The notes beneath the pieces are model-generated. The model was not told the origin of the DNA and did not search any database. It saw nothing but the letters and a program-made list of their open reading frames with translations. From Blastocatellia bacterium (GTDB lineage Bacteria > Acidobacteriota > Blastocatellia > HR10): DNA of 64,000 bases. The stretch lies in assembly GCA_025055075.1 (NCBI GenBank), contig JANWYV010000035.1, positions 11,163-75,162 of the forward strand, in the 5' to 3' direction. Numbering within the stretch: position 1 is the first letter of the stretch; every line of letters begins with the position of its first letter. Both the position numbers and the translations under genes were made by a program. Shown here piece by piece: positions 18,570 to 47,500 of this stretch.

Positions 18570-18571
18570 GG

Positions 18572-29849: not shown

Positions 29850-29859
29850 CGCTTCGCTC

Positions 29860-32800
29860 TCAGAAGATGAACTTCAACCCGAATTGAATCTGCCGATTCA
29901 ACGTCGTCGTCGCATTCACTTTCCCGAAGGCCGAGGAGGCCCGATTCCGCTCCGGAATCCCAAAATTCGCGTGATTCGCTGCATTGAAGAACTCGGCCCG
30001 AAATTGAAGCCGACGTTCCTCTCCGAGGCGGAAGTTCTTGAAGAGTCCGAGGTCGAGGTTATTGATCCCATCAGCGATGAGGATGTTGCGCCCGGCGTTT
30101 CCGTAGGCATACACCCCCGGCGGCAAGGTGTCAGAAAATGCGTCCGTGTTAAACCACCGATCGGGCGTGGGCTTCTTCAGTTTGGGATTCCCCACGACGA
30201 AGGGACGGTTCTCGCCGCCTGTATTGGAGATGTCGCGAGTCGTGATCACAGTGAACGGCCGTCCAGATTGCAGCGTGAGGATACCCGTTATCTGCCATCC
30301 TCCCAGGATGTGCTCGAGAACCGGATGGGCCGTCGAGAGCCAACGCCGACCCCGCCCGATGGGTAATTCGTACACGAAGCTGGTGACGAAGCGATGTCGC
30401 GCGTCGAACTCGGAGAGACCGCGTTCGGCCCTCAGGTTCCTCGGATTTTGAACAGCAGCTTCCCCAATGCCAGAAGTCGAGGGCGGTGCTCCAAGGTCGA
30501 TGGACTTCGAGATCGTCCAAGAAGTGAGGAGCGAAAGCCCTTGGGCGAAGCGACGCTCAATCCGCAACGAAAATCCGTGATAGCTGGACGTCCCAACAGC
30601 ATCGCGCCAGAAGACGTTGCTCCACTGCGGCCAGGGACGACGCGCCTGGATCGGCCCAGGCCCCGGTTCCGGCTGGTTGATGTCGAACAGTAACGGTAAG
30701 CGCGTCCCTTTCGATCCGAGGTATGTCACCTCGACGAGAAGATCCGAGGTCACCTCGCGCTGGATCCCGAGGCTCCACTGCTGCATATAGGCGGATGGAA
30801 AGTCATAATTGATCCCGTGCGGCGTGAAGCCACCGGCGGCTACGCCCGGCGGGAAGGGCCTCTCCCACGTTGCCAGGACACGCGTCGTCGTATTGGTGAA
30901 CGTCTGACGGATGCGGAACGGAATCCCACGATACATTTGCGAGAGCCCATTGCCCGCGACAATCTGATTGTAGAAGATCCCGTAGCCGCCACGAAGCACC
31001 GTGCGGTTATCGCCGAAGATCCGATAAGCGAAACCAAACCGTGGAGCGAAGTTATTCTTATCCAAGCGCCAGAGCCGACGTCCGAACGGCGAGCGCCCCA
31101 CGGTGACGAGGTTCCCATTGGCATCCACATTGATCAAGCGTCCATCGGCGACAGGGACGAATCCGGTCTTCGGATCGAAGCTCGACATCTTGTTGACGCG
31201 CTCCAGTTCGGGAAAGTTCAGCTCATAGCGCAGGCCAATGTTCAGCGTCAGCTTGGGCGAAACCTTCCAATCATCCTGCACATAAAATCCCGCCTGCGTC
31301 GTATAGGTGTTGGAGAACGGCTCGCCTGGGGCGCGCGACGTCGAGCGCAACAATCCGAGCAGGAAGTCAGCGAACGCGTTCCCAGTGAATTGTCCGTTGA
31401 AGAAGAAATCGCCCCGACCGAACTGCGTGAAGAACGAGTTGAAGAGGAACCGTTTCACGTCGGCTCCGGCCTTCACCGTATGATCGCCCCCCGTATAAGT
31501 CACGCTATTGGCGATATGATAAGTGTTCGTTCGCCGTCCCTGGGGGAGATTGGTCGGCCCTCCGATGATGGCGAAGCCCGAGACGCGGACCTGCGGCAAG
31601 CCCGTGTTAAAGAACTCCGGCCCGGCAAGGCCATCGGGGCCGCCTTGTGGAATGCCGAGCTTCTGCACCATGTTGCCCAGCGCCATGTCCTCGTGGAAGC
31701 GGTTCGTGCGCAAGCGGTTGTACCCTATCCGGAACTCGTTCAAAAAGCGCGGCGAGAAAACATGCGTGTCCACGATGGCGATGTGCTGCGTGCGCTCGGG
31801 CTCCGTGCACCCAAATCCCGGGATGACTCGATCGCCACAGAGTGGATTCGAGGGCTCGAAGTTCTCGCGCTGCATGAATTGATAGCTCGCGAAGAAGCTG
31901 TTCGCTTCCGAGAACTTGTGATCCACGCGGACGGAGAATTGATTCTGATTCTGAGTCCGAACAGCATTGAACGCATAGTTATTGGCCAATCCCGGCTGAT
32001 TCGGCAACGGCCAGAAATCCAATAGGGCGCGGCTGATCCGATGAATACGATCCTCGGGGATCCGATTGCCAGGGAAGGGCTGCCCAGTCTGCGGATCTCG
32101 AATGGGCGTCGCGATCTCGGAGAGATCGCCCCGGCGCATCTTCTCCGTCGGGACGGTGGCCAGTCGAGCGACCCCTTCGGTCAGCCGCAGGCCCTCATAC
32201 GTCACAAAGAAGAACGCGCGATCGCGAACAATGGGACCACCCGCTGAGAAACCAAATTGATGCCGTTTGAGTTCCGGCTTCGGCCCTCGTAAGAAGAAGT
32301 TACGCGCATCGAGATTGTCATTCCGCAAGAATTCGAAAACGGTGCCGTGGAATTCGTTCGTCCCGGATTTCGTCGTGATGATGATCTGCCCTCCCGAATG
32401 CCGCCCGTATTCGGCGCTGTAGATCCCGGTGAGGACCTTGAACTCGCGAATCCCATCCACCGAGGGACGATGCGTCGGTTGCATCGTCGTCTCATCGTTA
32501 TTGTCAATGCCGTCGAGCAGGAAGTAATTGTTGACCTCCGGATTACCCGCTACGTTGAAGCCGCCGCGAAAGCCAAGGGTCGAGCCTTGAGGCGGATTGA
32601 AGACATTAGGCGCTAATTGAGCGAGTTGCCAGAACTCCCGCCCATTGAGCGGCAACTCCTTCACCTTCTGCTCATCAATGACATTCCCCACCATCGCGTT
32701 CTCCGACTGCACCAACGGTGCGCCCGCTGTCACGACAACTTGCTCCTCAAGCCCGCCAACGACTAACGTGAAATCCAAGCGCGCCTCTTGTCCGACTTGC

Positions 32801-33102
32801 AGGACGATTCCCTCGCGGATCTCGGTTTTGAATCCTGTCGCTTGAGCCGTGATGGCATACGAATCGGCGGGCAACTGCGTGATCACGTAATCCCCCGAGT
32901 TGTTCGTCACCGCCGTTCGCGTCCACCCCTTGCTTACGTTCCGAACGATGATCGTCGCGCCGGGGATCACGGCTCCCGATTGATCCCTCACTGTCCCTCG
33001 AAGCGTCGCCGTGAACCCCTGCGGGTTCGCGAAGACACACCATAGACTGGCTATGGAGAGGATGAGGAACGACATCGCGGCCTTCATCGCCATCGCCTTC
33101 AT
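29860..33102 (-). CDS. TonB-dependent receptor with N-terminal carboxypeptidase-regulatory-like domain (Oar-like), start MKAMAMKAAM
   Basis: signal peptide, CarbopepD_reg-like beta-sandwich (TLRGTVRDQSGAVIPGATIIVRN), TonB plug/barrel, C-terminal aromatic (KFIF); AGGAGG RBS. Confidence 0.85.
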   Translation of the reverse strand: MKAMAMKAAMSFLILSIASLWCVFANPQGFTATLRGTVRDQSGAVIPGATIIVRNVSKGWTRTAVTNNSGDYVITQLPADSYAITAQATGFKTEIREGIVLQVGQEARLDFTLVVGGLEEQVVVTAGAPLVQSENAMVGNVIDEQKVKELPLNGREFWQLAQLAPNVFNPPQGSTLGFRGGFNVAGNPEVNNYFLLDGIDNNDETTMQPTHRPSVDGIREFKVLTGIYSAEYGRHSGGQIIITTKSGTNEFHGTVFEFLRNDNLDARNFFLRGPKPELKRHQFGFSAGGPIVRDRAFFFVTYEGLRLTEGVARLATVPTEKMRRGDLSEIATPIRDPQTGQPFPGNRIPEDRIHRISRALLDFWPLPNQPGLANNYAFNAVRTQNQNQFSVRVDHKFSEANSFFASYQFMQRENFEPSNPLCGDRVIPGFGCTEPERTQHIAIVDTHVFSPRFLNEFRIGYNRLRTNRFHEDMALGNMVQKLGIPQGGPDGLAGPEFFNTGLPQVRVSGFAIIGGPTNLPQGRRTNTYHIANSVTYTGGDHTVKAGADVKRFLFNSFFTQFGRGDFFFNGQFTGNAFADFLLGLLRSTSRAPGEPFSNTYTTQAGFYVQDDWKVSPKLTLNIGLRYELNFPELERVNKMSSFDPKTGFVPVADGRLINVDANGNLVTVGRSPFGRRLWRLDKNNFAPRFGFAYRIFGDNRTVLRGGYGIFYNQIVAGNGLSQMYRGIPFRIRQTFTNTTTRVLATWERPFPPGVAAGGFTPHGINYDFPSAYMQQWSLGIQREVTSDLLVEVTYLGSKGTRLPLLFDINQPEPGPGPIQARRPWPQWSNVFWRDAVGTSSYHGFSLRIERRFAQGLSLLTSWTISKSIDLGAPPSTSGIGEAAVQNPRNLRAERGLSEFDARHRFVTSFVYELPIGRGRRWLSTAHPVLEHILGGWQITGILTLQSGRPFTVITTRDISNTGGENRPFVVGNPKLKKPTPDRWFNTDAFSDTLPPGVYAYGNAGRNILIADGINNLDLGLFKNFRLGEERRLQFRAEFFNAANHANFGIPERNRASSAFGKVNATTTLNRQIQFGLKFIF

Positions 33103-33352
33103 CTTCCTCGCCTCCTTAGTTTGGGATGTGACAGTAACGATGCCCACTATAGCACGCATTGAGAAAATCTGTCAACACATCCCATCAGCATCAGCGTGCT
33201 GGACGTTATGCGCGTAACGCTTACCTGAGCAAAAGCGTATTCCTTATAGCTGAGGAACAACGTGAACGGAAGGGAGAGACTTCATGCGGGCGAGGAGAAG
33301 CCGACCAAGACCTTCATGGGGAGACATTTGGACGATCGAGAGGCCTTTCCTC

Positions 33353-34552
33353 ATGGGTGCGCTCTTCATTGGGGCGACCTTGATTCTGAGCGGATGTCGA
33401 AGCGGATCTCCGGCCTCGAGCGCGCAAAACCCGATTGTGGGCGATCCGGCCTCTCCGAAGCTTGTGCGGACGGCGCGCGTCATGGTTTGGCCTTTTGAGG
33501 ATACGATATCGGTCATGGGGACGCTGGCGGCTTACGATCAAGCGACGCTGCGGGTGAAGGTTCCCGGGCGGTTGCAGATGATCACCGTGGATTTCGGCAG
33601 CGTCGTGCGCCAGGGGCAATTGATCGCCCAGATTGAACCCCGCGACTACCAATTGCGCGTGGAGCAAGCTGAAGCAGCATTGGCGCAGGCGCGTGCGCGT
33701 TTGGGATTGCCCCTGGAAGGGACGGACGATCGCGTGGATCCCGAGCAGACCGCGCTGGTCCGCCAAGCGCGTGCCGTTTTAGAAGAAGCGCGTGCCAATT
33801 ACGAACGCTCGACCCGGCTGTTTGAAGAAGGCGTCATCTCGCGCTCGCGCTTCGACGCCGACGAAGCGGCGTATAAGGTCGCGCTCGGCCGCTATCAGGA
33901 CGCTCTGGAGGAGGTGCGCAATCGTCAGGCGCTTCTCGCTCAGCGGCGCTCGGAGCTTGCGCTCGCACGGCAACAATTGGCTGATACAGCCCTTTATGCG
34001 CCTTTTGATGGCGTCGTACAAGAGCGGCACACGAGCGTCGGGGAGTTTCTCGCCGTCGGCTCCCCCGTGGTGACGATCGTGCGAATGGATCCGTTGCGGC
34101 TGCGCGCTGAGGTTCCGGAGCGCGAAGCCCACCGGGTGCGCCCCGGACAACGCGTGCGCGTGACGGTCGAAGGCGACCCCACGATCTACACCGGCCAGAT
34201 CGTGCGCCTCAGTCCGACGATCGCACTGCAAAACCGCATGCTCGTCGTCGAGGCCGAAGTGCGTAACAACGGGCAGCTTCGTCCGGGCGCCTTCGCGCGC
34301 GTGGAGATCCTCACCGGAGAAGGGCGCTCGGCGCCCGTTGTCCCCCCCAATGCCATTGTGAGCTTCGCCGGATTGGAGAAGGTCTTTGTCGTGCAACAGG
34401 GGAGAGCTGTTGAGAAGCGGGTGATGACCGGTCGCCGCACGGGGGAAAGGGTGGAGATTCTCTCCGGACTCGAACCGGGGGAGGAGGTCATCCTCGATCC
34501 AGGTAATCTGCAGCCGGGGCAAGCCGTCGTCTCCGTGCGCGAGCGATCGTGA
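33353..34552 (+). CDS. efflux RND transporter periplasmic adaptor subunit (MFP) lipoprotein; track ORF starts at 33284, lipobox LILSGC suggests start at 33353
   Basis: HlyD/AcrA-like coiled-coil and beta-barrel sequence. Confidence 0.8.
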   Translation: MGALFIGATLILSGCRSGSPASSAQNPIVGDPASPKLVRTARVMVWPFEDTISVMGTLAAYDQATLRVKVPGRLQMITVDFGSVVRQGQLIAQIEPRDYQLRVEQAEAALAQARARLGLPLEGTDDRVDPEQTALVRQARAVLEEARANYERSTRLFEEGVISRSRFDADEAAYKVALGRYQDALEEVRNRQALLAQRRSELALARQQLADTALYAPFDGVVQERHTSVGEFLAVGSPVVTIVRMDPLRLRAEVPEREAHRVRPGQRVRVTVEGDPTIYTGQIVRLSPTIALQNRMLVVEAEVRNNGQLRPGAFARVEILTGEGRSAPVVPPNAIVSFAGLEKVFVVQQGRAVEKRVMTGRRTGERVEILSGLEPGEEVILDPGNLQPGQAVVSVRERS

Positions 34553-34581
34553 CCGGCTGGTGACACCAGGAGGAGAAACCC

Positions 34582-37500
34582 ATGCAAAAACTCGCGGAGA
34601 TTTGTATTCGACGTCCCGTCTTCGCCACGAATATCATCCTCGCTCTGGTCGTCGTTGGCGCGGCGAGCTATTTTCGCCTCGGCGTGGATCGTTTCCCCTC
34701 AGTGGATCTACCGACGGTGAGCGTGCGCACGGTCTTGCCCGGCGCATCGCCTGAGGAGGTCGAGACGCAAGTCTCGCAACGCATCGAAGAGGCCGTCAAC
34801 ACGATCGAAGGCATCTACGAGCTGCGCTCCATCTCCGGCCCCGGCGTCTCGATTGTCATCGTGACCTTCAATCTGGATCGTGACATTGACGCTGCCGCTC
34901 AAGATGTCCGCGATCGCGTGGCGACGGTGCTGCGGGATCTGCCGCGCGACGCGGAACCGCCCATCATCTCCAAGTTCAACAATGACCTCTCTCCAGTGCT
35001 GACGATTGCTCTCTCAGCCGATCGGCCGCTGCGGGAGTTGACCGAATTGGCCGACAAGATCGTGAAGCGGCAACTGGAGCGCTCCGAAGGCGTCGGCGAA
35101 GTGCGCGTGGTCGGCGGCTTGGAGCGTGCCATCAATATTTGGATTGATGCCCATCGGCTGGCGGCCTACCAGATTCCGATCACGGCCGTGCGGGAAGCCA
35201 TCGCGCGTCAGAACGCGGACATCCCGGGCGGCAACGTGACGGCTGGGCCGCATGAGCAGACGCTCCGCACCATGGGGCGCCTCACCGATCCGAAGCAGTT
35301 CGACGATCTGGTCATCGCCACCATCAACGGGATGCCCATCCGCGTGCGCGACATCGGGTGGGCGGAAGATGGGACGAAAGAGCAACGCTCGTTCGCTCGA
35401 CTGAATGGCGTCCCGACGGTGACGCTCGAAATCCGACGCCAGTCCGGAGCCAACACAGTCGCGGTCATCGAAGGGGTCAAAGCCCGACTGGCGCGCGTCC
35501 AGGCGCAGCTCCCGCCCGACGTGCGGATGGAGATCATCCGGGATCAGTCGCGGTACATCTACGCGGCGCTCCATGAGATCAACATGCATCTGCTGGCCGG
35601 CAGTCTGTTGGCCTGCTTGGTCGTTCTCCTCTTCATGCGGAGCTGGCGCTCGACGTTGATCGCGAGCGTGGCGATTCCCGCCTCGGTCATCTCCACCTTC
35701 GGCATGATGCGCGCCTTGGATTTCACCCTCAACAGCGTGACGATGCTGGCCCTCGTGCTCATGGTCGGCATCGTCATTGACGACGCCATCGTCGTCCTGG
35801 AGAACATTTTCCGTTTCGTCGAAGAGAAGAAGATGCGCCCTCTTGAGGCGGCGCGCGCGGCGACGGCCGAAATCGGCCTCGCCGTCACGGCGACGACGCT
35901 CAGCCTCGCCGTCATCTTCATCCCCGTCTCCTTCATGTCCTCGATCTCGGGGCGCTTCCTCTATCAATTCGGCATCACGGCGGCGGTGGCCGTGATGGTC
36001 AGCCTCTTGGTCTCCTTTACGCTGACGCCGATGCTGAGCGCGCGCCTGTTGCGCGCTGAGGATGCTTCCGGGAATACCGGTGTCGCCAGATCGCGAACTG
36101 GCTTTTACGCCGGATTGGAACGGGGATACCTGGCCATCCTCGCCTTCGCCATGCGTCATCGGGTGCTCGTCGCCGGGGCGGCCGTCCTGGTGATGCTCTC
36201 TTCGATCCCGCTCTACCAGATCCTGCGCCAGGAATACATCCCCAGCGACGTGGATGAGGCGGAATTCGAGGTCAATGTGACGGCTCCCGAGGGCACGAGC
36301 ATCGCCGCCATGGATGAGATCATGCGAGCTATTGAGGCCGACCTGCGAGCGACGCGAGGCGTGCGTTTGGTCCTCGCCTCGGCCGGCGGGGGATTTCTCG
36401 GCAACGTCAATCAGGGGAGCGTCTACGTCCGCATCGCTCCTCACGAAGAGCGGCGATTCTCCTTGGCGCGCCTCTGGCGCGAGACGCTCAAAGGGCGCCC
36501 GCTCGATGCGTTTCGCGGAAATTACACGCAACGCGATGTCATGCAAGAGGTGCGTCGCCGTTTGCGTAAGTACTCCGATCTCCGAATTGCGGTGCGCAAT
36601 GCCCCCTCGTTCAATATCGGCGGAGGCAATTTCGACATCGATTTCGTCATCCGAGGTCCGGATCTCGAGCAGCTCGCCGCCTATGCGGAACGCCTGCGGC
36701 AGCAAGCCGATGCGCTGGGCATCGTAGATGCCGACACGACACTGAAGCTGGATAAGCCCGAATTGCGCGTCGAGATCGATCGGGATCGCGCGGCGGCACT
36801 CGGCGTTTCCACCGAGGACATCGCAACGGCGTTGCGCATCATGGTCGGCGGGGATGAGAGGGTCTCGCGGTTCCTCGATCCGACGCTCAATGAGGACTAC
36901 TATGTCCAACTTCGATTGACCGAGGGCGACCGCAACGATCCACAGACGATCTCGCGCTTGTACGTGCCGAGCCGCGGCGGGGGATTGGTGCGGTTGGACA
37001 ACGTAGTGCGGTTGGTCCCGGCGCGCATCGCCTCGCGAATCGATCGCTTGGATCGGCAACGGCAAGTCAGTTTGCGCGCGCAGGTCGCGCCAGGTTATGG
37101 TTTGGCCGATCGCCTCCAAGCGCTGCGCGCGGCCGCGGCGGAGTTGAACATGCCCCCCGCCTATACGATCAGCATCGCCGGACGCGGGCGCGAGCTGGAG
37201 CGCACCTTCCGCGAATTCGTCTGGGCATTCCTGCTGTCGGTCATCTTCATGTACATGATCTTGGCCTCGCAATTCGAGAGCTGGGTGCATCCGTTCACGA
37301 TCCTGCTCTCGCTGCCGCTCTCGGCGCCGTTCGCCTTGCTCTCGCTCTGGGCGACGGGCAACACGCTCAATCTCTACTCCGCGCTGGGATTCCTCGTGCT
37401 CTTCGGCGTGGTCAAGAAGAATGCGATCCTTCAGATCGACCACACGAACCAGCTCCGCGCGCAGGGGATGGATCGGCTTTCGGCCATCCTGCAGGCGAAT

Positions 37501-37872
37501 CGCGATCGGCTGCGTCCGATTTTGATGACGACGCTCACGCTGGTGGCTGGCATGATCCCGATGGCTATCGGGACCGGTCCGGGCGCTGAAGAGCGACGGG
37601 CCGTCGCCGTCGTCGTCATCGGTGGACAATCGCTCTGTCTGCTGTTGACGCTGATTGTCACGCCGGTGGCGTATTCGATCTTCGATGACATCGGCGCGAT
37701 GGCCTTCTGGCGAACGTTGGCGGAACGCCTGCGCGTGACGCTCGAACTGGTGCGACGGCCGCTTGGCGCTATCTTCGGAGGGCGTCAGGTCACCGCTCAT
37801 TCGCGTGCCGTCGCCCCTCTGTTCGAGCGCGAAGAGCGCGAAGTTGAAATCAGCCCCAAGAGTGGCGATTAG
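34582..37872 (+). CDS. RND efflux pump, AcrB/HAE1 family inner-membrane transporter
   Basis: 1096 aa, 12 TM, AcrB family N-terminus MQKLAEICIRRPVFATNIILAL. Confidence 0.9.
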   Translation: MQKLAEICIRRPVFATNIILALVVVGAASYFRLGVDRFPSVDLPTVSVRTVLPGASPEEVETQVSQRIEEAVNTIEGIYELRSISGPGVSIVIVTFNLDRDIDAAAQDVRDRVATVLRDLPRDAEPPIISKFNNDLSPVLTIALSADRPLRELTELADKIVKRQLERSEGVGEVRVVGGLERAINIWIDAHRLAAYQIPITAVREAIARQNADIPGGNVTAGPHEQTLRTMGRLTDPKQFDDLVIATINGMPIRVRDIGWAEDGTKEQRSFARLNGVPTVTLEIRRQSGANTVAVIEGVKARLARVQAQLPPDVRMEIIRDQSRYIYAALHEINMHLLAGSLLACLVVLLFMRSWRSTLIASVAIPASVISTFGMMRALDFTLNSVTMLALVLMVGIVIDDAIVVLENIFRFVEEKKMRPLEAARAATAEIGLAVTATTLSLAVIFIPVSFMSSISGRFLYQFGITAAVAVMVSLLVSFTLTPMLSARLLRAEDASGNTGVARSRTGFYAGLERGYLAILAFAMRHRVLVAGAAVLVMLSSIPLYQILRQEYIPSDVDEAEFEVNVTAPEGTSIAAMDEIMRAIEADLRATRGVRLVLASAGGGFLGNVNQGSVYVRIAPHEERRFSLARLWRETLKGRPLDAFRGNYTQRDVMQEVRRRLRKYSDLRIAVRNAPSFNIGGGNFDIDFVIRGPDLEQLAAYAERLRQQADALGIVDADTTLKLDKPELRVEIDRDRAAALGVSTEDIATALRIMVGGDERVSRFLDPTLNEDYYVQLRLTEGDRNDPQTISRLYVPSRGGGLVRLDNVVRLVPARIASRIDRLDRQRQVSLRAQVAPGYGLADRLQALRAAAAELNMPPAYTISIAGRGRELERTFREFVWAFLLSVIFMYMILASQFESWVHPFTILLSLPLSAPFALLSLWATGNTLNLYSALGFLVLFGVVKKNAILQIDHTNQLRAQGMDRLSAILQANRDRLRPILMTTLTLVAGMIPMAIGTGPGAEERRAVAVVVIGGQSLCLLLTLIVTPVAYSIFDDIGAMAFWRTLAERLRVTLELVRRPLGAIFGGRQVTAHSRAVAPLFEREEREVEISPKSGD

Positions 37873-38079
37873 ACATGGCGCGCGGGAGTCACGGTTCGGA
37901 CAGCGCTTGCTCTCCCACCTCCGTCTCTCGCCAGGAGAGGAGTCGTCCCTTTGCGCGCTCCTTCCGGGACTCCGAAGAGGAACGCACCATGTCGCGTCCC
38001 CATTGGGCGATCGCTTGTGTTCCCCGCTCCGCCGACGTGAGCGGGCGCACGGCGAGAACAAACTAAGGAGGGAAACGTC

Positions 38080-41000
38080 ATGAAGCATAAGAGGAGACTG
38101 CTCGGAAGAAGCCTCTCGCTTTTCCTTGCGAGTGCCCTCATCCTCGCTCCCTCAGTCTTTCCCCAAACGAAGGAGAAAGCGCGGCCCACTCCGGCCGCTC
38201 AGAAACTCGATGAGGGGTACACGGCCAAGATCCGCGAATATACGACCGAGCCATTCTTCCTGACCGAGTTGGTAGATCATCTGCCGGCTTCCGATACGGT
38301 GCCCACGCCGGAGAAAGTGCTCGGTTACATCATCGGCGCACCGAATAAGCTGACGTACACGAAGGACATCTACCGCTACATGCGCGAGTTGGAGAAAGCG
38401 ACGCCGCGGGTGAAGGTCTTCACAATGGGCTATTCGGAAGAAGGGCGAGAGATGATTTTGGTCGTCATCTCCGATGACGCGAATATGCGCCGGCTGGAGC
38501 GCTACAAAGAGATCACGGCTCGACTGGCCGATCCGCGCACGCTCACCGACGAAGAGGCCAAGCGGTTGATCGCCGAAGGACTGCCCATGTATTGGGCGAC
38601 TGGCGCGATCCATTCGCCGGAGACCGGCTCGCCCGAGATGCTCATGGAGCTGGCCTATCGGCTCGCCGTCGAGGAGACGCCCTTCATCCAGGAGATCCGA
38701 AAGAATCTGATCGTGCTCATCACGCCTGTCGTCGAGGTGGACGGACGCGACCGCCAAGTCGATCTCTACAACTATCGCAAGGCCAATCCCAATAAGCCCG
38801 CGCCGAACTTGATCTACTGGGGGAAGTACGTCGCTCACGACAACAATCGCGACATGATGTCACTCTCGCTGGCGCTCAGCCGACATATGATGCGGACTTT
38901 CTTGGAGTGGCATCCGCAGGTGTTGCACGATCTACACGAATCGGTCCCCTTCCTCTACACCTCGACGGGAACGGGGCCATATAACGCGTGGATTGACCCG
39001 ATCTTGATCAACGAATGGCACCTGTTGGCCTATCACGAGATCGAGGAGATGACCAAGCGGGGCGTGCCCGGAGTGTGGACGCATGGATTCTACGACGGAT
39101 GGGCGCCCAACTACATGTTCTATGTCGCCAATGGACACAATGCGATCGGGCGATTCTACGAGACCTTCGGTGGGCGCGGAGCGGACACAGGCGAGCGTAC
39201 TGTTCCGGCCGCGCAAACGACGCGGACATGGTACCGGCCGAATCCTCCACTGCCGCGTGTTCGCTGGTCGTTTCGCAACAATATCAATCTGCAGCAGAGC
39301 GCTTTGCTCTTCGCGATGAACTTCGTGGCGCGGAACAAGGAGCGGTTCTTGCACAATTTCTATCTCAAGAGCAAGCGCTCGGTATTGAAGGCGACCACTG
39401 AAGGCCCGGCGGCGTGGGTCATTCCGGCCGATGATCCGCGCCCGGTCGAATGCGCGGAACTCGTCAACCTCCTTCGGTTACAAGGCGTCGAAGTCCACAC
39501 GGCGGACCGCGAGATCGAAGTGACGGTGACCGACGGGCGAGAGGAGAAGAAGGTCACTTTCCCACCCGGCAGCTACATTATCCGCATGGATCAACCCTAC
39601 AGCCGCATGGCCGATATGTTGCTCGATACGCAGTATTACAATCCGAACGATCCGCGCCCCTACGATGATACGGGCTGGTCGCTCGGGGCCCTGAAGAACG
39701 TGCGGACTGTGCGCGTGACGGACACGGCGATCTTGAAAGCCCCGATGACCCTCCTGACCTCGGATGTGAAGGTTCGGGGGCGAATCATCGGACCGGCGGC
39801 GACGGCCGGATACCTCATCAATCACAACACGGACAACACCCTGGCGACATTTCGCTTCCGGTTGAGGGACGTGCGCATGCTCGCCGCTGAAGAACCATTT
39901 GAAGCGCTCGGTCGCGCGTTCAATGCTGGTTCGTTCATCATCCCGACCGAGGGGAATCCGCCGGACTTGCGCGCGCGTCTCGAACAAGCGATTGCAGACC
40001 TCGGCCTCACCGTATATGCCGTCGAGGAGTTGCCGAAAGTGCCCACCCATCCGATCGCCGTACCGCGCATCGCGCTCGTGCACACGTGGACGAACACGCA
40101 GAACGAAGGCTGGTTCCGTCTCGCCTTCGATCGCTTGCAAATCCCTTACGACTACGTCTCCGTGCACGTGCTGCGCGACACGCCGAACCTCCGCGACAAG
40201 TACGACGTGATCATCCTGGGACCGACTCCAGGCAGTGCGCAAGCGATCGTCAACGGCCTCCCGAAGCGCGGCGATCCCATCCCGTGGAAGAAGAGCGACC
40301 TGACGCCGAACATCGGCACATCCCCAGACCAAACGGATGACATCCGAGGAGGGATCGAGCTGGAAGGTATGGTCAACCTCAAGCGCTTCATCGAGCAGGG
40401 AGGACTGTTCGTCACGATCGGAAGTAATGCCGCCCTCCCCATCGACTACGGATTGATCCAAGGCGTCTCCATCGTTCAAACGCGCGAGCTGCAAGCGCGC
40501 GGCGGCGTGTATCGCGCCGTGTTCGCCGACAGGCGGAGCCCCATCGCTTACGGCTACGGGGATCACCTCGCCGTGTACTTCAATCAAGCGCCCGTGTTTC
40601 AAGTGAGCCTGACTGGCGGCCTGGGCGGAGGAAGCGGAGCTTTCGGCGCGCAACAGCAACAACCGACTGGGCGACCGAGCGGACGTGGCTCGCTCACCGA
40701 TCCCGATATCCCCCAAGGACGACCGTATGTGCCGCCGCCACCCTCTCCGCGTCCGGGAGAGGAATCGGGAATCCCGGAAGAAGTGAGCGAGTTCGTGCGC
40801 GCATTCCTCCCTCCGCCGGAGGCGCGACCGCGCATCGTCTTGCGCTTCGCCGAAGAGCGGGACCTGCTCATCGCCGGGATGCTTGCCGGAGGCCGCGAGC
40901 TGGCGAATCGTCCCGCCGTCATTGATGTCCCCGTCGGCAGAGGACACGTGCTCCTGTTCGCGAACAATCCGATGTGGCGACAGCAAACGCAAGGCAGCTT

Positions 41001-41100
41001 CTTCCTCCTCTTCAACGCCATGCTCCACTACGATCATCTTCACGTCGGACGACAACGGGCGCGCATCGAGGCCACCAGCGACGAAGAAGACTTGCAGTGA
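38080..41100 (+). CDS. secreted M14-family zinc metallopeptidase (carboxypeptidase-like) with large C-terminal extension
   Basis: signal peptide; zinc ligands HSPETGSPE (HxxE) and downstream His; strong AAGGAGGG RBS. Confidence 0.75.
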   Translation: MKHKRRLLGRSLSLFLASALILAPSVFPQTKEKARPTPAAQKLDEGYTAKIREYTTEPFFLTELVDHLPASDTVPTPEKVLGYIIGAPNKLTYTKDIYRYMRELEKATPRVKVFTMGYSEEGREMILVVISDDANMRRLERYKEITARLADPRTLTDEEAKRLIAEGLPMYWATGAIHSPETGSPEMLMELAYRLAVEETPFIQEIRKNLIVLITPVVEVDGRDRQVDLYNYRKANPNKPAPNLIYWGKYVAHDNNRDMMSLSLALSRHMMRTFLEWHPQVLHDLHESVPFLYTSTGTGPYNAWIDPILINEWHLLAYHEIEEMTKRGVPGVWTHGFYDGWAPNYMFYVANGHNAIGRFYETFGGRGADTGERTVPAAQTTRTWYRPNPPLPRVRWSFRNNINLQQSALLFAMNFVARNKERFLHNFYLKSKRSVLKATTEGPAAWVIPADDPRPVECAELVNLLRLQGVEVHTADREIEVTVTDGREEKKVTFPPGSYIIRMDQPYSRMADMLLDTQYYNPNDPRPYDDTGWSLGALKNVRTVRVTDTAILKAPMTLLTSDVKVRGRIIGPAATAGYLINHNTDNTLATFRFRLRDVRMLAAEEPFEALGRAFNAGSFIIPTEGNPPDLRARLEQAIADLGLTVYAVEELPKVPTHPIAVPRIALVHTWTNTQNEGWFRLAFDRLQIPYDYVSVHVLRDTPNLRDKYDVIILGPTPGSAQAIVNGLPKRGDPIPWKKSDLTPNIGTSPDQTDDIRGGIELEGMVNLKRFIEQGGLFVTIGSNAALPIDYGLIQGVSIVQTRELQARGGVYRAVFADRRSPIAYGYGDHLAVYFNQAPVFQVSLTGGLGGGSGAFGAQQQQPTGRPSGRGSLTDPDIPQGRPYVPPPPSPRPGEESGIPEEVSEFVRAFLPPPEARPRIVLRFAEERDLLIAGMLAGGRELANRPAVIDVPVGRGHVLLFANNPMWRQQTQGSFFLLFNAMLHYDHLHVGRQRARIEATSDEEDLQ

Positions 41101-41274
41101 ATACCGAAGCCAGCGAGCCCGCGAGGGGGAACGAAGGATTCGCTCCCCGAGAGGGCTCGCGGCGCGCGTCGTTTGAGCCCGACCGTCGTATGCGCCCGCG
41201 GGGGATTTTCGAGTATAATGCCCCCCGTATGCGGCAGCACGATCTTCGGCAGTGACCGCTTCCGGAGGGGCGAG

Positions 41275-42975
41275 ATGGGGAAAGGAAAACTCGTATGGGC
41301 GTTGACATTGGCGGTGATGCTGGAGCCACTACCGACGGGCGCGTTCGGCGGGCGGCCCGTTCGCGCTCGGCATGGTCTGGTGGCGTCCACGCATGAGATC
41401 GCTTCGCGCGTGGGCGTGGAGATTCTGCAGCGCGGAGGGAATGCTGTGGATGCGGCGGTGGCGGTTGCGCTGGCGCTCGCCGTCGTGCATCCGGCAGCGG
41501 GGAATCTGGGAGGAGGAGGCTTCATGCTCATTCGCCTGGCCGATGGGCGAACGACCGTGATTGATTATCGAGAGACGGCACCGACTCGCGCGCACCGCGA
41601 TATGTATGTGGACGAGAAGGGCGAGATCATTCCCGAAGCCTCGACCGTCGGACATCGCGCCGTCGCCGTCCCGGGAACGGTCGCCGGCATGGCGCTCGCT
41701 CTCGAAAAATATGGGACGATGTCCTGGGCGGACGTCTGCCGGCCCGCCGAACGACTCGCGCGCGAAGGCGTCGTACTCACCCATTTCGAGGCCGAGAGCT
41801 TGAAGCGAGCCGCACGACTCCTGTCTCGCTTTCCCGAAAGCCGGCGCATCTTCCTTCGCGATGGACGCTACTACGAAGAGGGCGAGGTCTTTCGCCAACC
41901 AGAGTTAGCCGACACTCTTCGACGGCTCATCGAGCACGGTCCGCGAGAGTTTTACGAGGGTGAGACGGCGCGCCGCATCGTCGCTGAGATGGAAGCCGGA
42001 GGGGGATTGATCACGCTCGAGGACCTGAAGAACTATCGCGCCGTCGAGCGCGAGCCGTTGCGCACGACCTATCGCGGATATGAGATCATCACTGTCCCCC
42101 CGCCCAGCTCTGGCGGCGTCGCCCTGATCGAAATGTTGCATATCCTGGAAGGCTTCGACTTGCGCGCGCTCGGTCATAATTCCGCTGAGTACGTGCATCT
42201 GCTCGTCGAGGCGATGCGGCGCGCGTTCGCCGATCGCGCGCGCTTCCTTGGCGATCCGGACTTCGCGCGCATTCCGGTGAAGGGACTCACCTCGCGCCGA
42301 TATGCGGAGGCGTTGCGTCGAACGATCGACCCCAAACGTGCGACTCCCAGCGCCACGCTCACCGGAGGCGACGCCTTCGCTTACGAATCCGAACAAACGA
42401 CGCATTTCACCGTCGTGGATGCGGCGGGTAATGTCGTCGCCAATACATACACGCTCAACGGCAGCTACGGAAGCGGAGTGACCGTTCGCGGAGCGGGATT
42501 CCTCTTGAACAACGAGATGGATGACTTCACGAGCAAGCCGGGCGCGCCCAACATGTTCGGACTCCTCCAGAGCGAAGCCAATCAGATCGCCCCTCGCAAG
42601 CGTCCGCTCTCGGCGATGACGCCCACGATCGTGCTCAAAGACGGTAAGCCATGGCTGGCGTTGGGTAGTCCGGGCGGCCCGACGATCATCAACACCGTCC
42701 TGCAGGTCATCCTCAACGTCATCGAGTTTGGGATGAATCTTCAGCAAGCCGTCGCAATGCCTCGCGTGCATCATCAATGGATGCCGGATCAGATCGTCTA
42801 CGAGCCCTTCGGGCTCTCACGGGATACGATCGAAGCGCTCCGAGCGCGCGGGCACACCTTGACGGAGAGGCCTCGTTACATGGGCGATGTGCAAGCCATC
42901 ATGATCGAGCCGGAGACGGGCATGCGCTTGGGGGCTTCCGATCCGCGCATGGATGGAAAGCCGGTGGGCTATTGA
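41275..42975 (+). CDS. ggt: gamma-glutamyltransferase (start MGKGKLVW)
   Basis: Ntn autoprocessing/nucleophile site QTTHFTVVD, GGxxG motif SPGGPTIIN; GGAGGGG RBS. Confidence 0.9.
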   Translation: MGKGKLVWALTLAVMLEPLPTGAFGGRPVRARHGLVASTHEIASRVGVEILQRGGNAVDAAVAVALALAVVHPAAGNLGGGGFMLIRLADGRTTVIDYRETAPTRAHRDMYVDEKGEIIPEASTVGHRAVAVPGTVAGMALALEKYGTMSWADVCRPAERLAREGVVLTHFEAESLKRAARLLSRFPESRRIFLRDGRYYEEGEVFRQPELADTLRRLIEHGPREFYEGETARRIVAEMEAGGGLITLEDLKNYRAVEREPLRTTYRGYEIITVPPPSSGGVALIEMLHILEGFDLRALGHNSAEYVHLLVEAMRRAFADRARFLGDPDFARIPVKGLTSRRYAEALRRTIDPKRATPSATLTGGDAFAYESEQTTHFTVVDAAGNVVANTYTLNGSYGSGVTVRGAGFLLNNEMDDFTSKPGAPNMFGLLQSEANQIAPRKRPLSAMTPTIVLKDGKPWLALGSPGGPTIINTVLQVILNVIEFGMNLQQAVAMPRVHHQWMPDQIVYEPFGLSRDTIEALRARGHTLTERPRYMGDVQAIMIEPETGMRLGASDPRMDGKPVGY

Positions 42976-42980
42976 GTCGT

Positions 42981-45182
42981 ATGACGCACGCTCGATGGCT
43001 CCGTTGGGCGATCCTCGGACTTCTCTTGCTTCCTCCCGTCGGAAGCGGCGCGTCCTCGCAAAGCGCGGCACGCAGGGCTTCGGCGCTCATCTACCGAGAT
43101 GATTTCGGCGTTCCTCACATCTTCGCTCCGGATGTGGAGACGGCGGCCTATGCTGTCGGCTACGCGCAAGCGGAAGACCGACTCGAAGAGTTGCTCAAGA
43201 ACTATCGCCGGGCGACGGGAACGATGGCCGAAGCCTTCGGTCCAGAATTCTTCCGACAAGATTACGAACAACGCTTGTGGCGACACGCCGAGGTGAGTCG
43301 CGCGAACTATCACCGCCTCACCCCGAAGACGCGAGCCGTGATCGAGGCCTTCATCGAAGGGGTGAAGGCGTACATGAGGGAACATCCGGAAAAAGTGCCC
43401 GCGTGGGCGCCGGAGATCCAGCCATGGCACGTCGTCGCCCTCGGACGCTTCATCATCTTCGGATGGCCTGTCGGCGAAGCCTTGGCCGATCTGCGTCGGG
43501 TCGGGATCACTCCCGATGTCCCATCGGGGCTTCCCGCCGAACTCCGGAATCTGTGGGGAAGGTCGCCGAGCAGTTTCGATCTCGCGGATCGTGGCTCGAA
43601 CGCGATGCTCATTGCCCCGTGGCGTACAGCGATGCGCGCGCCCATCGCCATCATTGATCCGCATCTCAGTTGGTACGGCGAATTCCGTTTCTATCAACTC
43701 CGCATATACGCAGGCACCTTGGCCGTCGCCGGCGTCGCGATCCTCGGCACTCCCCTCCCCGCGCTCGGACATAGCGCGCACTGTTCCATCGCAATGACCA
43801 CGGGAGGACCAGACACGGCCGATGTCTACGAGGAAGAGGTCAACCCCGAGAATCCGCGCCAATATCGCTATGACGGGGAATGGCGTCCGATGCGCGTGCG
43901 CGCGGAGCGGATCGGCGTTCGCCGAGGAGATCGCGTGGAATGGGTGACCATCGAGATCGAGGAGACGCACCACGGGCCGATCATCGCCCGCCTCGGTCAC
44001 AAAGCTTACGCGGTGGCGCTCCCCTACGCGGAGGAAGTGGAGCTGATGGACCAAATCTTCGAGATGCTGATGGCGCGCGATGTCGAGGAGATGAAACGCG
44101 CGTTGGCGCGCCTTCAACTCATGGCGCAGAACGTCTTGATCGCCTGCACCTCGGGCGACCTCTATTACGCCCGCGTCGGGCGCGTGCCGATCCGGCCTGA
44201 TGGCGTAGATCCGAGTCGTCCCATTCCCGGACACACGGCTGCCACCGAATGGCGCGGGATTCATCCGTTCTCCGATCTCGTGCAGCTTCAGAATCCCCCT
44301 TCCGGCTACATGCACAACTGCAACGTGACGCCATTCGCCATGATGCGGGAGAGTCCCCTCGTGCCGGAGCGGTACATCCCGTACATCTACAACGCGAGCC
44401 GCACGGCGCCGCGCCATCAACGCGGCGAACGCGTGACGGAACTGTTGGACGCGGCGACGCGCGTCACCGAGGAACAAGCGCTCGCCCTCGCTTTCGATAC
44501 CGGCGTTTGGCACGCTGAGCTGTGGCAAGCGCGAGTGAGAGAGGCATGGGAACGAGCGCCCGAGTCGGCGAAATCACCGGAGGTGGCCATCGTCTACGAA
44601 TTGATCCAACGCTGGAACCGGCGCAGCGATCCCGATTCCGAGGGCGCGCTCGCGTTCTACGCGTTCAAGAAAGCGCTCGGCCCGATGCTCGCTCCTCGCG
44701 TTGATCCCCCGCCGACGGTGACCGACGCTGAGCTTCTCGAGGCGCTCGCGCGCGCAGCGAAATGGCTCAGGGCGACGTTCGGATCGCTTCGCGTCCCCTA
44801 CGGGCGATATTTCCGCGTCGGCCGCGAAGGCGGGACGCGAACATGGCCTGTCGGAGGCGGCTCTCTCAATCGAGAACCGAACAATGTGGGGATGGCGACT
44901 CCGCGCGCCATCACCTTCGTCCCCGCGGGCGAGGTGATGCTCGGACGCGCCGGACAATCGGCGACGCACGTCGTCATCCTGACGAAACCGCCTCGGTCAT
45001 ATTCGGTCGTCCCCCTGGGGCACAGCGACGATCCGAAGAGCCCGCATTGGGACGACCAGGCGGAAAAGCTCTTCAGTCGGGGACGCGCTGCGCCCACGTA
45101 TTTCCTGCGCCGCGGTGAGCTACTCAAGCACGTCACGGCGCGAAAGGTGGTGAGGCGCACGATGAGAAGACCACGAGGATGA
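42981..45182 (+). CDS. penicillin acylase family (S45) Ntn-hydrolase, AHL/cephalosporin acylase-like (start MTHARWLRW)
   Basis: signal peptide; alpha subunit then beta-subunit nucleophile Ser in GSNAMLIAP; ATG 5 nt after ggt stop. Confidence 0.85.
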   Translation: MTHARWLRWAILGLLLLPPVGSGASSQSAARRASALIYRDDFGVPHIFAPDVETAAYAVGYAQAEDRLEELLKNYRRATGTMAEAFGPEFFRQDYEQRLWRHAEVSRANYHRLTPKTRAVIEAFIEGVKAYMREHPEKVPAWAPEIQPWHVVALGRFIIFGWPVGEALADLRRVGITPDVPSGLPAELRNLWGRSPSSFDLADRGSNAMLIAPWRTAMRAPIAIIDPHLSWYGEFRFYQLRIYAGTLAVAGVAILGTPLPALGHSAHCSIAMTTGGPDTADVYEEEVNPENPRQYRYDGEWRPMRVRAERIGVRRGDRVEWVTIEIEETHHGPIIARLGHKAYAVALPYAEEVELMDQIFEMLMARDVEEMKRALARLQLMAQNVLIACTSGDLYYARVGRVPIRPDGVDPSRPIPGHTAATEWRGIHPFSDLVQLQNPPSGYMHNCNVTPFAMMRESPLVPERYIPYIYNASRTAPRHQRGERVTELLDAATRVTEEQALALAFDTGVWHAELWQARVREAWERAPESAKSPEVAIVYELIQRWNRRSDPDSEGALAFYAFKKALGPMLAPRVDPPPTVTDAELLEALARAAKWLRATFGSLRVPYGRYFRVGREGGTRTWPVGGGSLNREPNNVGMATPRAITFVPAGEVMLGRAGQSATHVVILTKPPRSYSVVPLGHSDDPKSPHWDDQAEKLFSRGRAAPTYFLRRGELLKHVTARKVVRRTMRRPRG

Positions 45183-45484
45183 AACGCGGACTCTCCCGAC
45201 GGCGCTTCCCCGCCCCCACAGATTTCGAGGAGACAGAGTTTGCCCCCCATCGGCGCTCCAGCTCGTAATGAGGATGCTTCACCATGCGGGAATCGAGCTG
45301 CGCATTTCGGCCATTTCTCGCCTACCCCAAGCCAGCGGGCAACGGGAAAACGCTCATCGTCGAAGCTCTCGACACGGAGATCCCCGTCGAATGCGGATGA
45401 GGGAGCCATCGCCTCCCCTTCGGGAGAGGCTTCGTGCTATGATGAAAGGTCAACACAAGCGATGCTGGCGAGGGGTAAGCGTCT

Positions 45485-47500
45485 ATGATCCGTCGGCTTC
45501 TCGATCGTCCGATCACGCGGCGTCCGGCCACTGTGCGCTTCACGGGGAGAATCCTCTTCCTCACCGAAGACCCCGATCTCATTCGTCGGCAGTTGGCCGG
45601 GGAGGATCTCGCATGGACGCCGGAGATGAAACTGCGGGATGACATTTCGACGGACGAGATCACGCCCGCCTACGTCTGCTTCTATTTCGACGAAACGCTC
45701 GGCGAATTCCCTTACATCGGCTTGAAAGCCGGCGATCAATTCCCCATCGGCCGGGGCGACGTCAAACGCGGGGGGTTCGTCGCATCGGTCTCGGGCAAAC
45801 GACGAGGCAAGGGGAGCAGCCGCGAGCAAGCTCCGTTCGCTGAACTCTCCGCGGGCATCCGTGTCGTGATCGCGGAGAACATCGAACGCATTTACAAGCA
45901 AAATTGCCAAAACTTGGGCTTACTGACGACGACGAATTTCGATCTCATCGAGAAGATCCGACGCGGGGAAGAAATCCCGCTCTCCGCTTTCACTGAGGGT
46001 GAGGATGAGATCACGCGGCAGATCGTGGAATTCGGCGGCTTGTTTCCCTTCAACGTCGCGCGCCTCCAAGGCCAGGTCGCCATTCCCCCGATTCGGACCG
46101 AACCGCGTCCGATGACGCTCGCGGAGAAGATCCTGGCGCGTCACATGGTCGTGGATTTGCCGCAGGATCGCGTGGGCGTGCCGGCCGTACGTCCGGGCGA
46201 TGCGGGATTCGTGCGCGCTGATTGGCGCTTCAGCCACGAATATGTGACGCCAATGGCCGCTATCTTCTTCGAGCGCTACGTCGGCGAAGAGGAGCGCGTC
46301 GCCGATCCCGATTCGATCCTCCTCTTCCGCGACCACTTGACGTTCCTGGACGAAGTCATGCCGCCGGAGCGACGCGCCATGGGCCTGCTGGATTTGGCTC
46401 ACCAGCTCAAGCTCAAGCAGGAGGAGTTCGCCCGTAAGCAAGGGATTCGCTATCACGGGGAATTGAGCGATCGTAAGGGTTCCGAAGGGATCTGCCACAG
46501 CATCGTCCTCGAACGATACGCGCTGCCGGGGCAAGTGATCGTCGGCTCGGATTCCCACACGCCGCATTCGGGAGCGATCGGCGCCCTCGCCTTCGGCGTG
46601 GGCACGACCGATCTCTTCAATTCCTGGATCACGCGCGATGTGCGCGTGCGCGTGCCCGAATCGGTCAAAGTCCTCGTTCGAGGACGACTACCGGAGAACG
46701 TCACGGCGAAAGACCTCGTCTTGGCGATTCTGCGCCTTGACTACGTGAGAAGCGGCCGGGCGATCGGCAAAGTAATCGAGTATGCCGGCGATGCCATCCG
46801 CGCGCTCGATATAGATGAGCGAGCGACACTGACGAACATGGCCGCGGAGATCGGTGGCTTCACCGGGATCGTCGCTCCGGATGAGAAAACGGTGGACTTT
46901 CTGGTCGAGCGGCGCGGTCTCTCCCGCGCTGAGGCGGAACGATTGATCGAGGATCTCCAGAGCGATCCCGATGCCGAATACGCGCATGTGATCGAACTGG
47001 ATGCCTCGATGATTCGTCCCATGCTCGCGCTGCCTGGCGATCCCGGCAATGGCATCGAGATCGCGTGCCTCGATCGCGAAGTGAAGATTCACATCGCCTA
47101 CGGGGGCTCATGCACGGCGGGGAAGAAGGCCGATATGGACATGTACGCGCGCGTATTGGCCGAAGCGCTCGCCGAAGGTCGACGTGTGCATCCCGAGGTG
47201 CGTTTCTACATCCAATTCGGTTCGCAGGATGTCCGTCAATATTGCGCCGAGCGGGGGTATCTGGAATTGTTCCGACAAGCGGGAGCGATCGTGATCGAGC
47301 CCAGTTGCGGCGCCTGCATCAATGCCGGTCCAGGCGCGACGACGAGCCGCGATCAAGTGGCCATCAGCGCGCAGAATCGAAATTTCCCCGGTCGCAGCGG
47401 TCCCGGGCAGCTCTATCTCGCGAGCCCCCTCACGGTCGCGGCATCGGCCATCGCCGGAAAGATCGCCGAATACCGTCCGCGTCGTTCTTCGACCGTATGA
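45485..47500 (+). CDS. aconitase-family Fe-S hydro-lyase with N-terminal LeuD-like swivel domain fused to LeuC-like catalytic domains (AcnB-type domain order)
   Basis: N-terminal GSSREQAPFAL...VIAENIERIYKQNCQNLGLL (swivel) then MTLAEKILARH, GSDSHTPHSGAIGALAFGVGTTD, YGGSCTAGK, SCGACINAG (three Cys ligands). Confidence 0.75.
   Translation: MIRRLLDRPITRRPATVRFTGRILFLTEDPDLIRRQLAGEDLAWTPEMKLRDDISTDEITPAYVCFYFDETLGEFPYIGLKAGDQFPIGRGDVKRGGFVASVSGKRRGKGSSREQAPFAELSAGIRVVIAENIERIYKQNCQNLGLLTTTNFDLIEKIRRGEEIPLSAFTEGEDEITRQIVEFGGLFPFNVARLQGQVAIPPIRTEPRPMTLAEKILARHMVVDLPQDRVGVPAVRPGDAGFVRADWRFSHEYVTPMAAIFFERYVGEEERVADPDSILLFRDHLTFLDEVMPPERRAMGLLDLAHQLKLKQEEFARKQGIRYHGELSDRKGSEGICHSIVLERYALPGQVIVGSDSHTPHSGAIGALAFGVGTTDLFNSWITRDVRVRVPESVKVLVRGRLPENVTAKDLVLAILRLDYVRSGRAIGKVIEYAGDAIRALDIDERATLTNMAAEIGGFTGIVAPDEKTVDFLVERRGLSRAEAERLIEDLQSDPDAEYAHVIELDASMIRPMLALPGDPGNGIEIACLDREVKIHIAYGGSCTAGKKADMDMYARVLAEALAEGRRVHPEVRFYIQFGSQDVRQYCAERGYLELFRQAGAIVIEPSCGACINAGPGATTSRDQVAISAQNRNFPGRSGPGQLYLASPLTVAASAIAGKIAEYRPRRSSTV

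Follow-up and report, generated by a model that had tools for sequence, protein, structure and literature searches.

An RND efflux pair, a secreted M14 peptidase gene and a ggt-acylase gene pair form a lineage-specific neighbourhood in a Blastocatellia chromosome

Five consecutive plus-strand genes occupy positions 33,353 to 45,182 of a 64,000-nucleotide stretch of the Blastocatellia bacterium assembly GCA_025055075.1 (contig JANWYV010000035.1, positions 11,163 to 75,162 of the forward strand; the whole stretch is called here the window). They encode the periplasmic adaptor and the permease of an RND efflux pump, a secreted zinc peptidase of family M14, a gamma-glutamyltransferase (GGT) and an acylase of the penicillin-acylase family S45, which is a family of N-terminal nucleophile (Ntn) hydrolases. 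A preliminary description of this DNA had read the five genes as a single periplasmic module for the processing of gamma-glutamyl and acyl peptides, coupled to export. Comparison with related genomes leads us to consider it probable that three independently expressed units lie side by side here, in a lineage-specific arrangement, on the core chromosome of one Blastocatellia bacterium. From the sequence, these units would be the adaptor-permease pair, the M14 gene and the ggt-acylase pair. Among M14, ggt and acylase, only the last two make up a plausible operon, and since relatives retain only ggt next to the acylase gene, the M14 gene and the pump stand outside the conserved unit. With the five-gene module set aside, the region offers a ggt-acylase bicistron that is restricted to one lineage and composed of ordinary family members.

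Gene identities were obtained by listing and translating the open reading frames (ORFs) of the window and by scanning them against Pfam and NCBIfam (Table 1). The presence of the five genes on the plus strand and all their family assignments agreed with the preliminary description. The short gaps described there are real between adaptor and permease (29 nt) and between ggt and acylase (5 nt), but the pump and the M14 gene are separated by 207 nt and the M14 gene and ggt by 174 nt. The three enzymes have signal-like N-terminal sequences, as judged by eye.

Table 1. Coordinates of the genes and sequence elements of the region, in window positions
Feature	Position	Strand	Remarks
RND periplasmic adaptor (membrane fusion protein, MFP), lipoprotein	33353..34552	+	first gene of the efflux pair
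RND inner-membrane permease, AcrB/MdtB-C-like	34582..37872	+	starts 29 nt past the adaptor gene
Pump-M14 spacer, 207 nt	37873..38079	+	strong Shine-Dalgarno sequence AAGGAGGG 6 nt before the M14 ATG
Secreted M14-family zinc peptidase, stand-alone	38080..41100	+	1006 amino acids; PF00246
GC-rich hairpin right after the M14 stop codon	41109..41163	+	-39.3 kcal/mol, z = -2.4, no T-tract
Promoter-like block TTCGAG-TATAAT-GCCCCC	41207..41225	+	candidate -10 box: 41214-41219, some 55 nt ahead of the ggt start
Canonical periplasmic gamma-glutamyltransferase	41275..42975	+	heads the ggt-acylase bicistron
S45 (penicillin-acylase family) Ntn hydrolase	42981..45182	+	5 nt past the ggt stop codon
Decayed remnant of a 437-amino acid AAA+ ATPase gene	45183..45382	+	about 110 nt of the 5' end plus a 47-nt piece

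The conservation of the gene order was analysed from the sides of the acylase, of the M14 protein and of GGT. The acylase alignment A1 (14 homologues) led to 80 loci of species-representative genomes, taken with 10-kb flanks and compared by tblastn with the window proteins, and another 80 loci, from metagenomes, were fetched for the M14 protein (loci are designated by L numbers). The full order MFP-RND-M14-GGT-acylase was present only in L001, L004 and L081 and, in incomplete form, in L002, whose acylases are 78-90% identical to that of the window. In these loci the fused aconitase, acetyl-CoA synthetase and Na+/H+ exchanger genes are collinear downstream as well, and since these unrelated genes have kept their places too, the conservation of the full order reflects close relatedness and not selection of a cluster. 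The remaining 75 acylase loci come from Blastocatellia, some of the bins bearing the name Verrucomicrobiota or Planctomycetota; 64 of them extend at least 2 kb upstream of the acylase gene (42 at least 9.5 kb), and in none of these 64, with orthologues 54-66% identical, was ggt, M14 or a co-directional RND pair found. The sole match to any of the four genes was a weak adaptor-like one (25% identity) on the opposite strand of L067. The recurrent neighbours of the distant acylases are unrelated, namely genes for enoyl-CoA hydratase, an MFS transporter, a zinc-ribbon protein, a DUF4129 protein, glutamate racemase and RNase PH.

The same picture emerged from the M14 side. Only L081 (M14 93% identical) repeats the arrangement of the window; among the 79 more distant loci, ggt lies downstream in none of the 47 with at least 2 kb of downstream sequence and an RND gene lies upstream in none of the 36 with at least 3.5 kb of upstream sequence. 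One locus out of the 79, L088 (2122-11500), contains an M14 gene (67% identical) followed by a metallophosphoesterase gene and then by an orthologous MFP-RND pair (60% and 76%), with 2.7 kb from the M14 gene to the pair and in an order that reverses that of the window. The trio of M14, ggt and acylase next to an RND pump, whose recurrence in relatives would have favoured a module, is thus limited to fully collinear close relatives, five GGT contexts from distant relatives being devoid of it. Consequently, the five-gene processing module coupled to export finds no syntenic counterpart in more distant relatives from any of the three sides, the very outcome that the preliminary description had named as refuting it, and the M14 gene is moreover parted from ggt by an inversion in L003 (see below).

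Two observations made along the analysed loci are worth recording. The acylase loci of 13 'binchicken'/SRP-derived metagenome-assembled genome records (L004, L008, L014, L021, L023, L042, L049, L052, L053, L059, L060, L075 and L076) are Blastocatellia-like, and the titles of these records (uncultured Clostridia, Bifidobacterium, Heliobacteriaceae) look taxonomically wrong. The aconitase-family protein encoded downstream in the window (45485-47500, 671 amino acids) carries the small-subunit domain (swivel, LeuD-like) N-terminal to the large-subunit domain, that is, both domains are fused in reversed order; the acetyl-CoA synthetase gene comes next, and both genes are collinear in close relatives.

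The adjacency of ggt and the acylase gene was found in ten loci and in four flanking contexts: with an M14 gene upstream, within an inverted block, with a Peptidase_C25 gene upstream, and with a TonB-dependent receptor gene downstream. The adjacency has therefore survived the change of its flanking genes. In L003 (acylase 84% identical) ggt, the acylase gene and an AAA+ ATPase gene are inverted en bloc between the aconitase gene and the M14 gene; a search for inverted repeats flanking the ggt unit, which might explain the inversion, gave matches at chance level only. In L162 and L165 (ggt 82-84% identical) the orthologous acylase gene, with a product 72-77% identical, follows ggt and precedes kdsB and pyrG, whereas in L169 and L172 (acylase 73%) ggt stands before the acylase gene and the TonB-dependent receptor gene after it. 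At lower identities the two genes are apart: ggt is not near the acylase genes of L170, L171 and L173 (65-70%); the ggt of L161 (77% identical) is solitary, with no acylase gene nearby; ggt homologues 70-73% identical follow an AlaX-like gene and those 65-69% identical lie between a prepilin peptidase gene and tyrS, in both cases with no acylase gene nearby. The 5-nt gap between ggt and acylase reported for the window was verified, and the distance from the ggt stop to the acylase start is 4-5 nt in L001-L004, with a Shine-Dalgarno-like GGTGGG located inside the 3' end of ggt. Upstream of the pair, L162 (4275-7934) and L165 (4383-7895) carry a gene for a Peptidase_C25 protein of about 1200 amino acids together with a radical-SAM gene; farther upstream, on the opposite strand, there is a gene for a 409-amino acid M14 protein with a CarboxypepD_reg domain.

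In L001, L002, L003, L004, L040 and L081 the next gene after that of the acylase is an intact AAA+ ATPase gene. Its start overlaps the acylase stop in L001 (12186-13499), and in L003 it travels with the inverted ggt-acylase block. In the window only a decayed remnant of this gene is left, whose 47-nt piece encodes the Walker-A segment ...GNGKT.... The matches of the ATPase to Pfam and NCBIfam models are weak (Sigma54_activat, IteA, proteasome ATPase), all of them far under the cut-off.

The spacer between the M14 gene and ggt, which reaches about 480 nt in L081, contains two elements that would separate both genes transcriptionally. The hairpin located next to the M14 stop codon is a possible terminator or transcript-end structure, as judged from its sequence; its arms GCGAGCC...GGCTCGC are retained in L001 and L002, and in L081 (13018-13497) an insertion of about 330 nt parts the two arms. 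Downstream of it, the motif TTC..TATAATG(C/G)CCC is invariant in six out of six relatives, including L003 where the unit is inverted, within a spacer that has otherwise diverged. From the conservation of this box we infer that ggt has its own promoter. The more distant ggt-acylase pairs, those of L162 and L165, lack the TATAAT box before ggt and share another motif there, GATTTACAAAT. In the 207 nt that separate the pump from the M14 gene, the ribosome-binding site AAGGAGGG of the M14 gene is kept in all the relatives compared, and the only block conserved among six relatives is AACAAACTAAGGAGGGAAAC; no significant fold (z = -1.5) and no Rfam family were found in this spacer. Read at the sequence level, the two gaps of 207 and 174 nt, the hairpin and TATAAT box in the second one, and the inversion of the ggt unit relative to M14 in L003 would speak against a single transcript across the five genes.

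The first gene of the conserved pair encodes a GGT of the canonical type. The protein scores 608.2 bits with the equivalog model TIGR00066 (cut-off 357.85) and 618 bits with PF01019, has the Thr nucleophile in QTTHF, as had been described, and keeps in NNEMDDF the equivalent of Asp433 of the Escherichia coli enzyme, so that score, nucleophile and alpha-amino-binding Asp all place it among TIGR00066-type GGTs. Asp433 binds the alpha-amino group of the gamma-glutamyl moiety, and the change of the MDDF Asp to Asn has been reported to convert GGT into a class IV cephalosporin acylase (PMC8062742). The start codon of the gene agrees with the database proteins P0241-P0243 (566 amino acids, 100% coverage). 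With E. coli Ggt the window protein has in common a match over its full length, the Thr of QTTHF, the Asp of MDDF, a lid-loop-like segment and a signal-like N-terminus. The difference concerns the gene context, since ggt is solitary in E. coli and in most of the Blastocatellia examined while in the window it heads a bicistron with an S45 acylase gene.

The S45 acylase matches PF01804 with 415.9 bits (cut-off 21.3) over profile positions 2-668 of 675. The Ser of GSNAM, correctly recognized in the preliminary description as the nucleophile, aligns with Ser1beta of the structure 1keh, and His23beta is kept; the full-length domain and the Ser at the start of the beta chain assign the protein to the family. 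Its start codon agrees with the database protein P0001 (733 amino acids, 100% identity and coverage). The best solved relatives are the glutaryl-7-aminocephalosporanic acid (glutaryl-7-ACA) acylases 1keh and 3s8r (E = 1e-47). Residues 32-701 align with the class I/III cephalosporin acylases of Pseudomonas and Brevundimonas (1keh, 3s8r, 1fm2, 4e55-57), with which the window protein shares the alpha-spacer-beta layout of the precursor, Ser1beta in G-S-N and His23beta. It is because these enzymes are the closest solved relatives that a gamma-glutamyl or glutaryl chemistry common to both members of the pair was first suggested. However, the relationship is distant, and Arg57beta and Tyr33beta, which we take to be the residues that bind the glutaryl carboxylate in the 1fm2 and 1keh structures, are replaced in the window acylase by Ala and Phe, respectively. 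A glutaryl- or gamma-glutamyl-like specificity shared with GGT was rejected on account of both replacements in the 1keh alignment, and hence the specificity of the acylase is probably not glutaryl-like.

An assignment as acylase of N-acyl-homoserine lactones (AHL) or pyoverdine of the PvdQ type is not supported either, as the equivalog NF051460 gives 111.7 bits, against a cut-off of 950, over residues 21-403 only. PvdQ and QuiP belong to the same Pfam family, and the JGI annotates orthologues of the window acylase as AHL acylase; nevertheless, the match to PvdQ in the PDB is weaker than those to cephalosporin acylases and penicillin G acylase, and the window acylase gene has no siderophore or quorum-sensing context. 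By the NCBIfam scan and the 1keh alignment, the acylase falls in no group of defined specificity. A full-text search of the literature gave nothing relevant on operons of ggt and penicillin acylase or on the biology of GGT in Blastocatellia.

The M14 protein scores 53.2 bits with PF00246 (cut-off 21.6), in a partial match that covers amino acids 97-227. Its length of 1006 amino acids and its HxxE motif, both given in the preliminary description, were corroborated, the motif being H178-S-P-E181. In the alignment A2 (13 sequences) no variation is seen at the candidate catalytic positions H178/E181, N256/R257, H286 and E361. The score above the gathering threshold, together with candidate zinc ligands and a candidate catalytic Glu, supports the assignment to the family as predicted from sequence. 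The HxxE, NR, H and E residues are presumably equivalent to those of bovine carboxypeptidase A and are shared with metallocarboxypeptidases of the carboxypeptidase A/T type, from which the window protein differs in its size of about 1000 amino acids, in the Pfam domain covering only about 130 of them, and in matching no NCBIfam model. The C-terminal 600 amino acids, approximately, contain no Pfam domain, and a Gly/Pro-rich segment is located near amino acids 845-900. No solved relative was found in the PDB by sequence or profile search, and an AlphaFold2 model built from the 13 sequences of A2 was unusable (mean predicted local distance difference test score, pLDDT, of 46). Homologues about 70% identical occur across classes of Acidobacteriota (mean column identity in A2 of 76%; more than 8000 database matches), and this family of about 1000-amino acid M14 proteins stands out by its high conservation over the phylum.

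The adaptor ORF spans 33284-34552, and the start of the protein was taken at Met24, after which the lipobox L-S-G-C is found. The adaptor scores 234.6 bits with the NCBIfam model TIGR01730 (cut-off 94.9) and matches HlyD_3 and HlyD_D23 of Pfam. The permease matches PF00873 over its full length with 871 bits, and its best NCBIfam match, RND_permease_2, reaches 853 bits, under the cut-off of 1250. As already described, the pump has no outer-membrane factor beside it: no gene of the OEP/TolC family is present among the window ORFs scanned, so adaptor, permease and outer-membrane factor are not encoded together as a tripartite system. The outer-membrane factor may be encoded elsewhere in the genome. 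This arrangement resembles that of acrAB and mdtABC of E. coli, with tolC elsewhere, in the lipoprotein adaptor, the 29-nt distance, the permease with 12 transmembrane segments and the absence of an outer-membrane factor gene nearby, but here the permease lies under all the NCBIfam subfamily and equivalog cut-offs and no substrate class is assigned.

Divergent from the adaptor gene, the minus strand carries three genes (26404-33159), which are only partly conserved in L081. They encode a TonB-type outer-membrane barrel of 1099 amino acids (OMP_b-brl_4, CarboxypepD_reg and Plug domains), a beta-lactamase-fold protein of 621 amino acids whose best match is a D-aminopeptidase, and an amidohydrolase of 477 amino acids whose best match is Xaa-Pro dipeptidase. 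The trio could be a unit for peptide uptake and hydrolysis. Beside it, at 33175-33146, is the promoter-like site with the best score in the region (11 of 12 matches).

The preliminary description had also proposed that a hyuAB pair located upstream would complete a gamma-glutamyl cycle. The pair is real at the Pfam level (HyuA, 16536-18569; HyuB, 18566-20158; the coding regions overlap by 4 nt), and the window does share with that cycle a GGT and a pair of the hydantoinase/oxoprolinase family. However, the best NCBIfam matches of both proteins are caprolactamase CapA and CapB, which reach 536 and 300 bits where the cut-off is 1000, the pair lies 21 kb from ggt, to which it is unlinked, with about ten unrelated and mostly opposite-strand genes in between, and no gene for gamma-glutamylcyclotransferase or glutathione synthesis was seen in the window. 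Since hyuAB is distant and caprolactamase-like and a cyclotransferase was not seen, the link to a gamma-glutamyl cycle finds no genomic support in the window. Positions 14788-20158, which comprise an MFS transporter gene, an ORF of 120 amino acids, hyuA and hyuB, look like a separate unit for lactam or hydantoin uptake and catabolism.

As for the window as a whole, it is core chromosome with a uniform GC content (0.58-0.65 across 2-kb bins), and thrS-infC-pheST, pdxST, serA, acs and mreB were also identified in it by the Pfam and NCBIfam scans. A scan of the whole window at Rfam gathering thresholds gave a tRNA (5385-5456) as the sole match, the intergenic gaps being blank, and a generic scan for sigma-70 promoters and terminators gave no more sites than shuffled sequence.

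The division into three units has to be weighed against other readings of the same genes. That all five would constitute a periplasmic gamma-glutamyl/acyl-peptide module coupled to RND export, with hyuAB closing a cycle, has very little chance of being correct. It is true that the genes are adjacent and co-directional, that three of them encode amide-bond-cleaving enzymes with signal-like N-termini, and that the order is retained in L001, L004 and L081; but this order is confined to close relatives, where collinearity extends over the entire region, and it is absent from the 64 acylase and 47 M14 informative loci and from the five GGT contexts of distant relatives. To this are added the L003 inversion, the internal gaps, the conserved -10 box and hairpin in the second of them, and the remote position and caprolactamase-like character of hyuAB. 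A looser association, in which a secreted peptidase and the ggt-acylase pair would be co-selected neighbours without being co-transcribed, the peptidase trimming peptides and GGT and acylase removing their caps, seems to us distinctly improbable. It draws on the presence of a large secreted peptidase before ggt-acylase in two unrelated contexts (the 1006-amino acid M14 protein and the Peptidase_C25 protein of L162 and L165) and on a window rich in peptide hydrolases, with D-aminopeptidase-like, Xaa-Pro-dipeptidase-like and TonB-type receptor genes just upstream. Nevertheless, the two peptidases come from different families, the contigs of L169 and L172 end before the upstream side, and M14 orthologues are almost never beside ggt. 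Acidobacteriota genomes encode many secreted peptidases, and a peptidase neighbour is therefore likely to occur by chance.

Regarding the pair itself, its adjacency might be functionless, with an acylase of AHL type (quorum-quenching), or another N-acyl amidase, acting independently of GGT within a young neutral pair. We hold this to be rather unlikely. The JGI label of the acylase orthologues, the replacement of Tyr33beta by Phe and of Arg57beta by Ala, which speaks against an acyl group bearing a carboxylate (glutaryl or gamma-glutamyl-like), and the lack of linkage in all lineages beyond a single subclade, with L161 and L170, both of one metagenome, among the cases, are in favour of it; on the other hand, the pair has stayed together through one block inversion and no fewer than three rearrangements around it, the 4-5 nt spacing and the internal Shine-Dalgarno-like sequence are conserved, and the 112 bits, against the 950 of the PvdQ equivalog, lend an AHL specificity no support. 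At the opposite extreme, the ggt-S45 acylase(-AAA+ ATPase) genes would encode a dedicated periplasmic system of two enzymes, maintained by selection in a Blastocatellia subclade associated with hot springs and stripping gamma-glutamyl and N-acyl caps sequentially from one specific natural compound. This proposal we regard as unlikely; if it were true, such a de-capping system would be the first physiological role for the cephalosporin-acylase-like branch of S45.

Several points weigh against the interpretation that we favour, with the ggt-acylase pair as an independent operon beside the M14 gene and the pump. The pairing is confined to one Blastocatellia subclade (acylase at least 72% identical) and the genes are unlinked in outgroups, so the two genes could have become neighbours recently and without selection. 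Directly 5' of ggt, the gene of a large secreted peptidase (M14 or C25) is found in two independent contexts, and a looser functional link with a peptidase keeps some plausibility from this. The properties attributed to the acylase pocket are read from an alignment with solved acylases that are distant relatives (E = 1e-47). Finally, the putative ggt promoter and the M14-ggt hairpin are deduced from conservation and folding, and the TATAAT box of ggt was missed by the generic promoter scan because its -35 element is poor.

Taking into account the spacing of the genes, the conserved -10 box, the block inversion in L003 and the absence of synteny outside close relatives, we propose a model of three units: (i) the RND adaptor and permease would form an operon, with the outer-membrane partner encoded elsewhere; (ii) the secreted M14 peptidase would be monocistronic, with its own ribosome-binding site, and (iii) ggt, the acylase gene and the AAA+ ATPase gene would have formed the third unit, whose last gene has decayed here. 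This third unit would be transcribed from its own promoter, of which the TATAAT box is the conserved part, and the acylase cistron would be translationally coupled to ggt through the 4-5 nt between stop and start codons. Both products, presumably exported and self-processing Ntn hydrolases, would be co-expressed in the periplasm. There, GGT would strip gamma-glutamyl groups and the acylase would strip non-glutaryl N-acyl groups, probably hydrophobic or uncharged, so that both enzymes jointly may free blocked peptides or amides as sources of amino acids. Neither the pump nor the M14 enzyme would have an obligatory part in this processing.

In the hydrolase-rich genomes of Acidobacteriota, co-directional hydrolase genes readily mimic modules, and here the comparative context takes a plausible-looking but unsupported new system off the list of candidates. 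The ggt-acylase pair is left as a modest lead, in which the GGT partner narrows the first acylase substrates worth testing.

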